Below, in pieces: positions 25,476-29,360 of a stretch of 32,000 bases of DNA; positions within the stretch are counted from its first letter, which is position 1, and every line of letters starts with the position of its first letter. The position numbers and the translations under genes were made by a program. The notes below the pieces were generated by a model, which made no database searches, had not been told where the DNA came from, and worked only from the letters and a program-made list of their open reading frames with translations. The stretch comes from Patescibacteria group bacterium (GTDB lineage: Bacteria; Patescibacteriota; Patescibacteriia; 2-01-FULL-39-33), in assembly GCA_041649575.1 (NCBI GenBank), contig JBAZMW010000003.1, positions 150,001 through 182,000 on the forward strand, written 5' to 3'.

Positions 25476-25991
25476 TTATTTTATTCCCAAAATTTCAAAA
25501 ATCATTTTCAGAATAACATAGGAGAGAAAAATAATCACCAGGCCGGCAATCGCCCAGATCATGGTGTTTTTGCCTTTAGTCACCCGGCCGGAATCGCCGC
25601 CGGAAACCATCCAGAGCAAGCCGCCGTAAATGAAAGCGATCAAAGCCAAGACTCCGGTGAACCCCAAGGCGGCGGTGATAATGTTTTTGGTGATGACTTG
25701 CACCGCCTCAATGCCTTTTTTGCCGCCGGTAATGCCCTCCAGGGGATCTTTCAGACTCTGGGCCGAACCAGCGCTGCCGCCAGAAACACCTGTACCTTCT
25801 GGAGCGGAAACACCTGTACCTTCGGCGACACATTCCCCAACCTCAGAAAAAGGGTCGGCAAAACTACAGATTTGACCAGGGCCGCAATCGGCTTTAGTAG
25901 TACAAGCTAAAACGATATTAGTGAGAGATAAAAATAAAAAAACAGAAAAACCAAAGAATGTTAATATCAACCAACCGCTTTTTCTTTTCAT
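25476..25991 (-). CDS. T4SS-pilin-like (VirB2/TrbC-like) small secreted membrane protein of the type common in CPR genomes
   Basis: N-terminal signal/TM segment, a Cys-containing region, a Gly/Ser/Thr linker, then two C-terminal TM helices with GGLLWMVSGGDSGRVTKGKNTMIWAIAGLVII. The family name is from memory (PF18895-like). Confidence 0.65.
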   Translation of the reverse strand: MKRKSGWLILTFFGFSVFLFLSLTNIVLACTTKADCGPGQICSFADPFSEVGECVAEGTGVSAPEGTGVSGGSAGSAQSLKDPLEGITGGKKGIEAVQVITKNIITAALGFTGVLALIAFIYGGLLWMVSGGDSGRVTKGKNTMIWAIAGLVIIFLSYVILKMIFEILGIK

Positions 25992-26061: not shown

Positions 26062-26107
26062 AACAAAAAGAAAAACGGCCCGAGTTGCGCGATGCAACCC
26101 TGGCCGT
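26062..26107 (-). terminator. Terminator of the three-gene GC-rich operon
   Basis: On the minus strand: aacggcc-agggttgcatcgcgcaactcg-ggccgtt followed by tttttcttttt. Confidence 0.7.
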
Positions 26108-26152
26108 TGTAGAACCGGTTGGAATTGGAATAGGTGGGTGATACAAGGCCGA

Positions 26153-26740
26153 CTATGAGAAGCGTATTCTCCTGATATGGACCTCTCCAATGGAGAGGCC
26201 GTGGAGAACCAGCTGACCCTCACCGTCGATCTTGATCACCTCGTCGCTGGCGATCGTCTGATAACCGCCCGCCTTCTGCTTGATCTTGAAAGGAGCGGTT
26301 ACGCGACTAAACTCCACGACGTCACCCGGGAAGATGGCCAGGCCGGAGCTGATCGGCTTACCAGGGCAGAACTTGATGTCCCTTTCCTCCACCGATCTGA
26401 TCGTCTTGGCCTTGGGCAACGAGGGCAAGCGAATGGCGCTGACTTTCGCCGCCACCTTCGCCTTGGCGTCGACCAGGTACGCGGGACGATAGATCGTCAC
26501 CAGGACCAAGGCCAGGCCTAGTCCAGCAGTGACGTAGAAAGCCTTTTTCTTGCCCATGGCCTCCCAGACGATCCCGCCGATACCCAGAAAAATCATCAGG
26601 GCAATAGTCGCCTGAATCGGAATCCTCGCATGCTGGTCGTCTTCCTGTGACCAGAAGAAGACGCCCAGGATAATCCCGATAACTACGGCGAAGGCAATCA
26701 CCTTGCCAACCTTCTTAAGAAAACCCCAGGCTTCCTTCAT
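26153..26740 (-). CDS. Hypothetical 3-TM protein with a C-terminal beta-rich domain of about 85 aa (operon gene 3)
   Basis: The ATG at 26740 overlaps the upstream stop (ATGA). GGAAGGAGG lies 7 nt upstream. TM helices at VIAFAVVIGIILGVFFW, ATIALMIFLGIGGIVW and AFYVTAGLGLALVLVTIY. Confidence 0.65.
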   Translation of the reverse strand: MKEAWGFLKKVGKVIAFAVVIGIILGVFFWSQEDDQHARIPIQATIALMIFLGIGGIVWEAMGKKKAFYVTAGLGLALVLVTIYRPAYLVDAKAKVAAKVSAIRLPSLPKAKTIRSVEERDIKFCPGKPISSGLAIFPGDVVEFSRVTAPFKIKQKAGGYQTIASDEVIKIDGEGQLVLHGLSIGEVHIRRIRFS

Positions 26741-27309
26741 GGCAGCATCCTCCTTCCTAGTAGCTTCCGCAAGATTTCGACTATGCCTTGGCCAGCCAGT
26801 TCGGACTTCAGATCCTTCCAGAATGTCCAACTCCCGGCACCCGTGGCACTTCCGGCACCACCAGCACTTCCGCTGACCGTACCACGTTTGGTAGCACCGG
26901 CCAGGGTATTGTGTATAGCGTCAGCCAGCTCTTCGCGAAAGCTGAGTATCAGATACACAATGGCTACTGGCCAAGTGAAGAAGGCCGCCTTCCACCACCA
27001 CCATGACGGACAGTTATTGGCCGGTGACGGTGGCGTCTCATAGCCAAACACTTTGTCGAGCTGATGGAATATGTCTCGGCTGGCCGAGAAGAATAGCCCT
27101 TCGCCAAAGCCAACGAAGAATGCTTCCGCCGTGAAGACGATGGCGACGATAACCAGTCCGCAGGCACGGTAGTTATTGTTATACACCAGCCGCGCCGCCA
27201 GGTAGCCACAGTCGTAACTGATTCTCTCTGTCGTCATGCATGCCAGAAAGAGAAACAGCCCGACCGCTCCCGCCAAGAAGGCGAGATTGAGTATTATCCA
27301 GTTGATCAT
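26737..27309 (-). CDS. Hypothetical 3-TM protein with a WWWW motif and a Gly/Ser-rich amphipathic tail (operon gene 2)
   Basis: The ATG at 27309 overlaps the upstream stop (ATGA). AAGGAGA lies upstream. Confidence 0.65.
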   Translation of the reverse strand: MINWIILNLAFLAGAVGLFLFLACMTTERISYDCGYLAARLVYNNNYRACGLVIVAIVFTAEAFFVGFGEGLFFSASRDIFHQLDKVFGYETPPSPANNCPSWWWWKAAFFTWPVAIVYLILSFREELADAIHNTLAGATKRGTVSGSAGGAGSATGAGSWTFWKDLKSELAGQGIVEILRKLLGRRMLP

Positions 27310-27809
27310 GACCGCGTCTCCTTTCTGTTCTTCTCTGCCTTGGGCCGTATTACCCCACGACGAACCAGTTCGTATTCGCGAACTTCCCTAAATGCGCCCC
27401 AAAAACCACCCATGTAGGACTTCTTGAATCTCGGTCCCAATATCGTGACGGTCTTGGTGTTCGCCTGGCTGCCCTTGTCCCTGAAGGTGAACATTTCACG
27501 TTTACCTCTGACTTGGTGCTCGTGGTGCCCACTTCCCTTTTCATCGGTAATGATGATCTTCTTCTTCCCGTCGTGGAGCATCACGATTTCGGTGCGTGGA
27601 ATGGGTCGACCATCCTCGGTGAACTGAACGACGAATGCGGTTTGGCCGTCATCGTCCGTGTCAAAGGTCACCTCAATATCGTACTCCGCAGCCGCCGGCT
27701 TCTTCTCTTCTTTCTTGGAATCGCCTCTCGACTGGCCGCACTTCACGCACCTACCGGCCTTGAAGAAATTCACATTTCCACAGCCGCACGTCCAACTCTC
27801 GTTTGCCAT
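27306..27809 (-). CDS. Hypothetical soluble protein with an N-terminal Cys4 zinc ribbon (operon gene 1)
   Basis: AGGAGA lies 8 nt before ATG 27809. The N-terminus WTCGCGNVNFFKAGRCVKCG is followed by a Lys/Glu linker and a beta-rich domain. The longer track ORF (to 27908) lacks an SD. Confidence 0.65.
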   Translation of the reverse strand: MANESWTCGCGNVNFFKAGRCVKCGQSRGDSKKEEKKPAAAEYDIEVTFDTDDDGQTAFVVQFTEDGRPIPRTEIVMLHDGKKKIIITDEKGSGHHEHQVRGKREMFTFRDKGSQANTKTVTILGPRFKKSYMGGFWGAFREVREYELVRRGVIRPKAEKNRKETRS

Positions 27810-27943
27810 GGCCTTACTCTCCTTTCCTAATCCAACCGTTCTGTTAAAGAACTGGGCTGGAAACCGTTTTCCCTTGTTATACCCCTCTTCGCCTTGAAAA
27901 GGAGTCATTTCAGGGGAAAGCCGTTCCTCCAGCCTAACATATA

Positions 27944-27972
27944 ATTATAGCATACTATCAATATTTTGTCAA
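27944..27972 (-). promoter_or_regulatory. Consensus promoter P_J (TTGACA-17-TGcTATAAT) of the three-gene operon
   Basis: On the minus strand: ttgaca at 27967-27972 and tataat at 27944-27949, spacer 17 nt. Near-identical to P_A. Confidence 0.75.
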
Positions 27973-28045: not shown

Positions 28046-28882
28046 TTAATCTTCTGCTTTAGGTTTTGAATTTTTACGCCTCGACTCGCCGAAGGCGAGA
28101 CAAGTAGCTTTGACTTTCAATATCCCTACGCCAGCTATGATTAATAGAACACTGATTATTTGCGGCAGCCTGATTCCCCACCACAGAGCCGTCTCGTCGA
28201 TACGGATAAACTCCATAAAAAATCTGATCAGCCCATAGCCGATAAAATAAATGGCCAAGAGCGACCCTGGCCGGCAGTTGTTTTTTCTGGCCAAAAGAAA
28301 CAAGATCAAAAACAAAACAAAATCCAAAACAGATTCATACAAAAAAGCGGGCTGGAAATATCGGTTTGACAAAAAAATTTCCGGACGATTTTTCGGTTCG
28401 ATGGGAATGCCCCAGGGCAAGTTGGTGGGCCGACCAAACAACTCTTGATTGAAATAATTGCCCCAGCGGCCAATGGCCTGGCCCAGGGCCAGAGCGGGAG
28501 CAGCCAAGTCGACTACTTGCCAAAAGGAAATTTTCTTTTTTCGGCTCCAAAAAATTACCACGATGATGCCGCCAATAATGGCGCCATGAATCGCCAGGCC
28601 GCCTTGCCAAATTTTAAAAATCTCCGGCAAGTTGTGACTGTAATAGGACCAATCCAAAACAAAAACCTGATAAAGACGGGCGCCCAAAATACCGCCGACA
28701 GCCAGCCAAAGGCCCAGGTCTAAAGCCAGCTCAAATTTTAGGCCTCTTCTTTTGGCCAGAGAGCCGGCGACCAGAATGCCCAGAAGCAAGCCCAAGACGA
28801 TTATCAGACCATACCAGCGAAACGAGAGCGGCCCAAACTGGAAGATAATCGGCTGCGGATAAAAATAATGAAAAAAATTCAT
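28046..28882 (-). CDS. lgt: Prolipoprotein diacylglyceryl transferase
   Basis: GPLSFRWYGL, GARLYQV, WQGGLAIHGAIIGG and GQAIGRWGNYFNQELFGRPTNLPWGI. An extended -10 TGtTATACT ends 7 nt before the ATG, so the transcript may be leaderless. Confidence 0.9.
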   Translation of the reverse strand: MNFFHYFYPQPIIFQFGPLSFRWYGLIIVLGLLLGILVAGSLAKRRGLKFELALDLGLWLAVGGILGARLYQVFVLDWSYYSHNLPEIFKIWQGGLAIHGAIIGGIIVVIFWSRKKKISFWQVVDLAAPALALGQAIGRWGNYFNQELFGRPTNLPWGIPIEPKNRPEIFLSNRYFQPAFLYESVLDFVLFLILFLLARKNNCRPGSLLAIYFIGYGLIRFFMEFIRIDETALWWGIRLPQIISVLLIIAGVGILKVKATCLAFGESRRKNSKPKAED

Positions 28883-28900
28883 ATCTTAAAGTATAACAGA

Positions 28901-28939
28901 AAAATAAAAAAAATCGACCCCCGAACCGGAGTTCGGGGG
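28901..28939 (-). terminator. Terminator of the small GC-rich unit upstream of lgt
   Basis: On the minus strand: cccccgaac-tccg-gttcggggg followed by tcgattttttttattttt. Confidence 0.8.
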
Positions 28940-28983
28940 AATTAAAGCTTTGACCAAAGAAGTTCGCTTGGAGCAGTACAGGA

Positions 28984-29208
28984 TTACGTGGTGCCGCAAT
29001 AGGCTGGCCGGTGGGAGCTGCGTCGCACAGTTCCTCTTGGCGGCCTTTCGGCTCTCCTGATCCGAGGGCGCTGAAGCGTGTTGGAGACTATCTGGTAGCC
29101 TCTCGCGACCAAGTCGCGGATGAATGCCTTCACCCTTCCACGTCCTTTCACCAGTGCCATATGCAGCTGATCCTTCAAATCCCGATACCTGACAAGATAC
29201 CTTCTCAT
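28984..29208 (-). CDS. Small Arg-rich protein, possible ribbon-helix-helix DNA binder (cassette L). Alternatively a 105-aa leaderless form starting at 29301
   Basis: AAGGAG lies 9 nt before ATG 29208. MRRYLVRYRDLKDQLHMALVKGRGRVKAFIRDLVARGY fits a strand-helix-helix pattern, followed by an Arg/Pro-rich tail. The coding status is itself uncertain. Confidence 0.35.
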   Translation of the reverse strand: MRRYLVRYRDLKDQLHMALVKGRGRVKAFIRDLVARGYQIVSNTLQRPRIRRAERPPRGTVRRSSHRPAYCGTT

Positions 29209-29309
29209 GCGCCATCGCTCCTTATGTTTTCCTCTGCCAGAATGCCCTATACTCATTTTCGACCAATCGGTTATGACCCTCCTTTCCAATGTCCACAGCA
29301 TGATTGTTT

Positions 29310-29338
29310 ATCATAGCACCAGGCAGGAGGTTTGTCAA
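29310..29338 (-). promoter_or_regulatory. Promoter of cassette L (TTGACA-17-TGcTATGAT)
   Basis: On the minus strand: ttgaca at 29333-29338 and tatgat at 29310-29315, spacer 17 nt. The first ATG (29301) lies 8 nt after the -10. Confidence 0.6.
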
Positions 29339-29360
29339 ACTTATCTTAAAGAAACTACGT

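Follow-up and report, generated by a model that had tools for sequence, protein, structure and literature searches.

In the genome of a Patescibacteria group bacterium (GenBank assembly GCA_041649575.1; 920 kb, 98% complete) we analyzed a stretch of 32,000 nucleotides (nt) of the forward strand, here called the window (contig JBAZMW010000003.1, positions 150,001 to 182,000). It contains a three-gene operon, whose genes are named A, B and C, between the prolipoprotein diacylglyceryl transferase gene lgt and a gene for a VirB2-like pilin. All operon elements, the pilin gene and lgt are located on the minus strand. Positions without a further label are those of the window, and protein lengths are given in amino acids (aa). 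The following features were identified:

27944..27972, minus strand: promoter of the sigma-70 type, TTGACA-17 nt-TATAAT with TG before the -10 element (12/12 positions matched)
27810..27937, minus strand: 5' leader of about 128 nt (core element 27833-27922), predicted to form two stacked helices, then a second hairpin
27306..27809, minus strand: gene A, 167 aa (sequence, alignment, AlphaFold2 model)
26737..27309, minus strand: gene B, 190 aa, three membrane helices (sequence, alignments, family profile)
26153..26740, minus strand: gene C, 195 aa, three membrane helices and a C-terminal beta domain (sequence, alignment, model)
26062..26108, minus strand: intrinsic terminator, bulged GC-rich hairpin and U-run (minimum-free-energy fold)
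25476..25991, minus strand: downstream gene, VirB2-like pilin paralogue (PF18895 T4SS_pilin, E 2.6e-9)
26051-26023, minus strand: promoter-like site of the pilin gene (10/12 match)
28046..28882, minus strand: upstream flank, lgt (PF01790, E 6e-76, synteny)

These elements form a genuine three-gene operon of the ultrasmall Patescibacteria bacterium. Most of this layout had been described in an original prediction made from the sequence alone, and the analysis recovered it. The promoter at 27944-27972 agrees with the consensus at all 12 positions, and the leader, expected to be about 130 nt long, measures about 128 nt. The three genes of 167, 190 and 195 aa are joined by ATGA overlaps at 27306-27309 and 26737-26740, each with a Shine-Dalgarno sequence of the AGGAG type within the upstream gene. 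The terminator, placed before at 26062-26107, appears in the minimum-free-energy fold at 26108-26062; it was overlooked by a simple scanner because of the bulge in its stem. The neighbouring gene is indeed similar to pilins of type IV secretion systems (T4SS), and co-expression of A, B and C as one unit, also part of the prediction, is supported. The leader ends at the ATG of A at position 27809, with GGAG located 9 nt ahead of the start. An in-frame ATG at 27908, which would make a protein of 200 aa, was rejected as an alternative start, as it has no usable Shine-Dalgarno sequence. The start at 27809 was chosen since orthologues begin with the zinc ribbon; a length of 167 aa was also obtained in an independent gene call. 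The operon is GC-rich as predicted, with a guanine plus cytosine (GC) content of 53-56% for A, B and C compared with 44.3% for the genome, and AT-rich stubs flank the genes.

Protein A had been described as a Cys4 ribbon followed by a beta-rich domain. This agrees with the alignment and with the AlphaFold2 model (predicted local distance difference test, pLDDT, 85.7), in which a Cys4 zinc ribbon (residues 5-26) and a linker precede an immunoglobulin (Ig)-like seven-strand beta sandwich (43-124) and an amphipathic helix (136-150). Invariant residues in the alignment are limited to the four cysteines C8, C10, C21 and C24 together with G92 and F136. The fold matches Ig domains of the Big_1/MG type, for example those of intimin and archaeal adhesin-like proteins, and fused relatives of A show weak matches to Big_1, MG3/MG4 and Big_3_5. 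A profile search against the PDB sequences returned generic zinc ribbons only. In the closest genera the ribbon reads W-x-C-x-C-x3-N-x6-C-x2-C, a pattern that we take to be similar to RanBP2-type fingers, while no finger model of Pfam was significant. Two known protein types were considered for A and rejected. A desulfoferrodoxin or superoxide reductase would need a His4-Cys iron site, which is absent from the Ig-like domain, and Foldseek comparisons with 1dfx and 2ji1 gave TM-scores of about 0.3 with root-mean-square deviations above 20. A zinc-binding anti-sigma factor would carry H-x3-C-x2-C, whereas the ribbon is of the form C-x-C...C-x2-C without histidine; no sigma-factor match of Pfam was found in the operon genes or their immediate neighbours.

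Protein B consists of three membrane helices with a WWWW motif and a Gly/Ser-rich tail, in agreement with the original prediction. Its conserved core comprises NN-x-R, a helix, GFGE(P), a variable outer loop, PSWWWWK, a further helix, REE, a Gly/Ser linker and an amphipathic tail helix. The PSWWWWK motif (residues 100-106) precedes the last membrane helix, the Gly/Ser-rich tail following it, and the NN motif is present in 131 of the 150 top representatives of the family. Protein C is likewise as described before, a protein with three membrane helices which ends in a soluble beta domain. Its model reaches a pLDDT of 78 overall and above 90 in the beta domain. After the three helices and a linker helix it shows a small double-stranded beta-helix (DSBH) of cupin-like type at residues 119-192, which matches a designed DSBH, cupins and DUF2917 (for example 6e5c, target TM-score 0.67). 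Long orthologues of C contain an extra outer segment that looks SH3-like by eye, with one weak SH3_2 match, which leaves this assignment unproven. No plausible catalytic or metal site was found in the alignments and models of A and C beyond the four cysteines of A. As modelled, the folds are of a generic binding type without conserved catalytic residues. A holin or lysis cassette was rejected as an explanation of the locus; the best PHROG holin match of C has an E-value of 0.24, and no lysin gene is located nearby. The tails of A and B (27306-27420 and 26737-26830) are amphipathic helices with a similar G-(F/W)-W/x-F opening, and MAFFT aligned the tail of A with that of B. These similar helices may represent a shared docking or membrane-surface element.

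The three families had been called unassignable, and this statement held: no library recognises A, B or C. Searches in Pfam, NCBIfam, PHROGs and PADLOC gave no significant match for any of the three, and PADLOC-DB 2.0 contains no family for them even at E<=1. When all members of the B and C alignments were scanned with Pfam and NCBIfam, no recurrent family was found. With A, B and C as queries, word-based searches of 5.8 billion proteins retrieved only the queries themselves, and feature searches in the ESM Atlas yielded nothing usable for A and B. The profile of B, applied to 1.84 billion proteins, detected 480 cluster representatives at E<=1e-3 and 238 at E<=1e-10 (clusters at 50% identity in public data). 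Judged by these comparisons, A, B and C are three new protein families, and no family or described system was found that contains them.

For the distribution of the locus, 34 genomes of the family (19 genera) and 401 genomes sampled from the class were compared. The module is present in 14 of the 34 family genomes, and the B profile detects its gene in 22 of the 401 class genomes. Within the family, 11 of the 19 genera share the gene order pyk, (PEP synthase), lgt, A, B, C, pilin. Three metagenome contigs and members of other families of the class contain the same genes, with the pilin gene before A or after C. Among the B-bearing loci, 22 of 32 contain a pilin gene within 2.4 kb, and nine of these 22 lie outside the family (f50, f67, f83, f87, a Candidatus Uhrbacteria metagenome-assembled genome and the three metagenome contigs). 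Co-occurrence of the trio in other genomes, on which the original prediction had staked its finding, was thus observed.

Two features of the neighbourhood in relatives deserve mention. A gene of about 795 aa near the locus was considered as VirB4 and rejected, as it encodes phosphoenolpyruvate (PEP) synthase/pyruvate phosphate dikinase (PPDK); a neighbouring gene of 803 aa encodes an NHL-repeat protein. In relatives the PEP synthase/PPDK gene is located between pyk and lgt. In the window, about 480 bp at 28883-29360 contain no convincing gene, and this genome has apparently lost or relocated the PEP synthase/PPDK gene. The most distant B relatives (L070:8585-10996, L072, L078, L079) have no neighbouring pilin gene. 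Downstream of B they carry genes for a membrane protein (about 330 aa) and next for a larger protein (about 800 aa), which in L070 is an NHL-repeat protein according to Pfam. The gene in the A position of L070 gives a weak Big_1 (Ig-like) match, and no zinc ribbon is seen by eye.

The conservation of the locus extends to its expression signals. In alignments of other genera the promoter sequence is also kept upstream of the cassette, and the leader is likewise conserved across genera. Folds of the leader are more stable than those of shuffled controls, with z-scores from -1.9 to -3.9 (-3.2 for this genome). With a covariance model of the leader core, R1, a single clear copy was detected in each of 11 of the 34 family genomes, and all clear matches are located directly upstream of the cassette. 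Three R1 matches fall outside the training set: two upstream of SPFH genes (G002, E 8.5e-9; G008, E 0.006) and one upstream of A in G003. A second match in G007 was discarded, as it overlaps the beginning of an unrelated gene and probably arose by chance. The leader does not reach the gathering score of any Rfam family, its matches being at chance level. RNAalifold gave no structure for the whole leader and 13 pairs with weak covariation for the trimmed core. The leader is therefore conserved and has predicted hairpins, with covariation too weak to call it a proven structured RNA. As a conserved leader RNA outside the Rfam families it is a candidate cis-regulator. In G006 the leader element is present as a tandem duplicate upstream of A (L030:5653-5824, contig C24), and lgt and the leader are separated by an inserted gene for a 429-aa multi-pass membrane protein without Pfam match (L030:4157-5446).

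The pilin gene next to the operon is one of nine PF18895 domains in this genome. The others form arrays on contigs C4 and C1, and two are located on C3. A phylogenetic tree was calculated from 63 pilin domains. In this tree 34 array-type pilins form one clade (support 97/91) which includes no cassette-linked copy. All 21 cassette-linked pilins fall outside the array clade, alongside the copies that adjoin cassettes of an SPFH gene and a C gene. The other detected pilins of this genome belong to the array clade, apart from one long-branch row of uncertain placement. These data show that a pilin clade is co-inherited with the cassette; related sequences share their labels, so that the pattern is not a statistical proof. 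The same linkage is seen from the side of lgt, as among 80 lgt-anchored loci every pilin gene directly beside lgt is accompanied by A-B or an SPFH-like gene. A pilin processed as a lipoprotein was considered as an explanation of the lgt link and rejected: the copy in the window contains VLAC, a possible lipobox, and the orthologues have ordinary signal-peptidase I sites.

Further pilin domains occur in other settings. The two on C3 are located upstream of the window (C3:134026-134220 and 137262-137465) at the ends of long open frames of 3300 and 1080 aa, and these frames may encode giant proteins carrying a VirB2-like membrane hairpin. In 11 loci of related Patescibacteria (L118, L131, L136, L138, L140, L142, L146, L151, L152, L166, L176; positions 1-1600) an array of at least three pilin genes lies about 4.5-6 kb upstream of lgt. 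Such arrays in many relatives suggest a more general tendency of VirB2-like genes to gather in the neighbourhood of lgt. The lifestyle of Patescibacteria is one of attachment to other microbes, and VirB2-like pilins and T4SS genes are among the few systems shown to be relevant to it. T4SS genes are widespread in this group and VirB2-like genes are often scattered or in arrays (PMC12102498). The only match to AAA_10 (VirB4-like) above the family cut-off in this genome is located outside the window at 63.8 kb on contig C1, near two pilin copies; PF03135 gave no match.

Natural fusions connect the proteins of the operon. Fusions of A and B occur in several independent lineages (G017, G281, G166/G416, G187) and account for 27 of the 150 best B representatives. 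B is fused to C in one metagenome protein (P0129), which matches the C profile with an hhalign probability of 97.7%. The number of helices between the A-like domain and the NN motif is 0 or 2 in 27 of 27 A-B fusions, which places the A-like domain and the NN loop on one side of the membrane. Since A contains a zinc ribbon but lacks a signal peptide, this side is predicted to be the cytoplasm. Unfused B proteins mostly have one predicted helix ahead of the NN motif. With the NN side in the cytoplasm, the variable Trp-bordered loop of B would face outward, and the Gly/Ser tail and amphipathic helix would be cytoplasmic. The B-C fusion, in which the tail of B is joined to the Lys-rich N-terminus of C, agrees with a cytoplasmic tail. 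C itself has three helices (five in the long forms) and a Lys-rich N-terminus. The odd number of helices together with an N-terminus on the inside would locate its terminal domain outside. The predicted topology thus has A inside, while B exposes its loop and C its beta domain to the outside. As the fusions tie them together, we infer that A, B and C form one physical membrane complex.

A few genomes carry a different gene in the place of A-B. In G008 a Band_7/SPFH gene and a short C-type gene are located between lgt and the pilin genes. G002 shows the order SPFH, C, pilin on a short contig which stops before lgt. The same order is found in L124 (Band_7, 36.5 bits; C-like, hhalign 93.8%), and a weaker version of the cassette is present in L114. 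In the two genomes whose upstream DNA was covered (G002, G008), the leader R1 lies directly upstream of the SPFH gene. Other divergent SPFH copies occur in unrelated contexts. Band_7 (PF01145) has no match in A or B and none anywhere in the genome of the window. The SPFH, C, pilin cassette of L124 lies in reverse orientation with respect to lgt, and an IS1595-family transposase gene (DDE_Tnp_IS1595, E 3e-35; L124:7667-8446) lies between the two.

The genes of the cassette are far more variable than their surroundings. Mean protein identity is 53% for lgt compared with 26% for A, 22% for B and 21% for C. The sharpest case is the congeneric pair G019 and G006, which share 86-95% DNA identity in lgt, the leader, the last third of C and the downstream sequence. 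In contrast, the stretch of about 2.2 kb that begins with A and extends to roughly codon 250 of C has no nucleotide similarity, and the proteins are 25-33% identical. To judge from this comparison, the stretch from A to the middle of C has been replaced between the two genomes. Two congeneric pairs form the basis for cassette replacement, the second showing the same tendency less sharply. No silent copies and no recombinase were found. The cassette exceeds its flanks by 8-12 GC points in every lineage examined, genomes of 35-39% GC among them, and the excess is also seen at third codon positions. As it is present in all lineages, the elevated GC is a lasting feature of the payload rather than the mark of a recent import, and exchange of a pool of payloads between lineages would be in keeping with it.

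Taken together, we propose that A, B and C would act as one non-enzymatic inner-membrane complex. It would be the payload, open to exchange, of an expression site conserved in Buchananbacteria-like Patescibacteria, which comprises a promoter, a structured leader, the payload and a VirB2-like pilin gene next to lgt. A, with its zinc ribbon, Ig-like sandwich and amphipathic helix, would be located in the cytoplasm and dock on B. B would form a membrane hairpin with NN-x-R and the tail in the cytoplasm and the Trp-bordered variable loop facing outward, and C would be a polytopic partner showing its small cupin-like beta domain outside, beside the pilin-like protein. Through C, the A-B scaffold would organise or stabilise the co-encoded VirB2-like protein at the cell surface. 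The term scaffold is based on the SPFH gene, which takes the place of A-B behind the same leader and ahead of C and pilin genes of the same kind. That A-B is a membrane scaffold in a non-enzymatic complex which organises C and the pilin-like protein is the reading we favour, with a probability that we put slightly short of even. More tentative, and in our view rather doubtful as a whole, is a wider proposal: a cassette-exchange site framed by the promoter with the leader at one end and by the 3' end of C with a dedicated VirB2-like pilin gene at the other, where the A-B payload would be a non-homologous analogue of the SPFH scaffold and diversifying selection at the surface (by the host cell, phage or a rival T4SS) would drive the replacement of alleles. 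The three new families, genetically tied to a distinct pilin clade, would be new pilin partners. A site that holds either an A-B complex or an SPFH scaffold, with replaced alleles, gives a functional lead towards a scaffold analogue at the surface under diversifying pressure.

Several observations speak against the scaffold proposal. The SPFH substitution was seen in three or four genomes only, and eight family genomes contain ordinary SPFH genes together with A-B; a general replacement of SPFH by A-B, or mutual exclusion across the family, was rejected on this ground. Ten of the 32 B loci have no pilin gene, these being truncated contigs or the most distant B relatives. The charge bias of B does not settle its topology alone. 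Among public runs the sequence occurs in a single DNA run, from a landfill metagenome; RNA data were not found among them. Finally, the extreme divergence, which includes the cytoplasmic A, suits an arms race (defence or exclusion) at least as well as a structural role. An exclusion or defence role is accordingly a live rival. It is the main one, though we consider it somewhat less probable than even the wider exchange-site proposal. The operon would then be an anti-phage abortive-infection module, or a module of entry or surface exclusion tied to a T4SS-like pilus, in which A, cytoplasmic and hypervariable, would serve as sensor or specificity factor, the membrane effectors or blockers being B and C. 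Such a module would account for the patchy presence in the family and the class, the low identity of A, B and C (21-26%) compared with lgt, the wholly different alleles between conserved flanks in two congeneric genomes, the lack of an enzymatic domain and the link to a pilus-type gene. It agrees less well with a chromosomal site that is fixed across genera and a pilin clade that is co-inherited, or with an alternative payload that is a housekeeping-type SPFH gene. PADLOC and PHROG gave no matches, and no defence, integrase or prophage genes are located nearby in the window. The original prediction had compared the operon with small phage-defence, exclusion or envelope modules built from an adaptor and two membrane proteins. 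The envelope part of this idea is favoured by fusions, topology and models, whereas nothing specific was found for phage defence, as PADLOC, the check it had proposed, was negative and neither a defence-island nor a prophage context was seen.

If the SPFH, C cassettes that fill the same slot behind the same leader are taken as the guide, the operon could be read as a divergent SPFH/NfeD-type membrane-homeostasis operon, in which C would be NfeD-like, A-B a non-homologous SPFH stand-in and the pilin a mere neighbour. C does have the architecture of a short NfeD protein (membrane helices and a small C-terminal beta domain), and the genome of the window has no Band_7 match of its own. However, the domain of C is a cupin-like double-stranded beta-helix instead of an oligonucleotide/oligosaccharide-binding (OB) fold barrel and does not match PF01957, so that C as NfeD was rejected on its fold. 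The usual order in SPFH/NfeD operons is nfeD first, and here the scaffold precedes the partner. The pilin clade tracks the cassette, and eight genomes hold A-B plus a canonical SPFH gene. We therefore regard this explanation as unlikely. Less likely again is that A, B and C are accessory membrane parts of a Patescibacteria T4SS, unrecognised VirB3-, VirB6- or VirB8-like proteins serving the VirB2-like pilin. The operon adjoins a PF18895 gene, and the wide occurrence of T4SS genes and scattered or arrayed VirB2-like genes (PMC12102498) would fit this explanation. The sole VirB4-like match, however, lies on another contig beside two other pilin copies, no member of the B or C alignments matches a T4SS family of Pfam or NCBIfam, and the SPFH alternative is not a T4SS component. 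As to homology with VirB3/PrgI, VirB6/PrgH or VirB8/PrgL, the comparison covered the models of Pfam and NCBIfam, among which no member gave a match. The GC content of 53-56% against 44% in the genome, the AT-rich stubs and the word searches of 5.8 billion proteins that found only the query could also point to a recently acquired foreign island of genes without conserved role. This is the least probable of the explanations and is largely refuted by synteny, as site, order, promoter and leader are the same across genera; moreover, the excess of 8-12 GC points recurs in every lineage and the B profile finds 480 representatives.

The operon can be compared with several known systems. TraS, Eex and TrbK are examples of conjugative entry-exclusion proteins, small membrane proteins of variable sequence whose genes adjoin pilus genes. 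The operon resembles these, and RexAB and Kiwa, in its small soluble and small membrane proteins, the lack of an enzyme domain and the high allelic diversity. It differs in the absence of homology (PADLOC), in its fixed chromosomal site and conserved partner gene, and in having no phage or plasmid context. With the VirB2-like arrays of Patescibacteria T4SS (PMC12102498) it shares the PF18895 neighbour, and the same genome has arrays near a VirB4-like ATPase. Unlike in those arrays, the cassette pilin belongs to its own clade, lies on another contig than the VirB4-like match and has three unclassified partners, which are not among the T4SS components listed in the passages of that paper that were searched. 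Operons of SPFH (stomatin/flotillin/HflKC) and NfeD proteins are similar in combining a gene for a membrane-anchored scaffold with an adjacent polytopic partner that has a small C-terminal beta domain. In contrast to them, A and B have no likeness to SPFH in sequence or fold, the domain of C is cupin-like and not OB, and the module is tied to a pilin. Capsule and O-antigen loci and the expression sites of pilins or surface antigens are alike in that conserved flanks enclose unalignable sequence and non-homologous payloads; here, however, the payload would be a membrane complex that includes a cytoplasmic protein, instead of sugar enzymes or an antigen.

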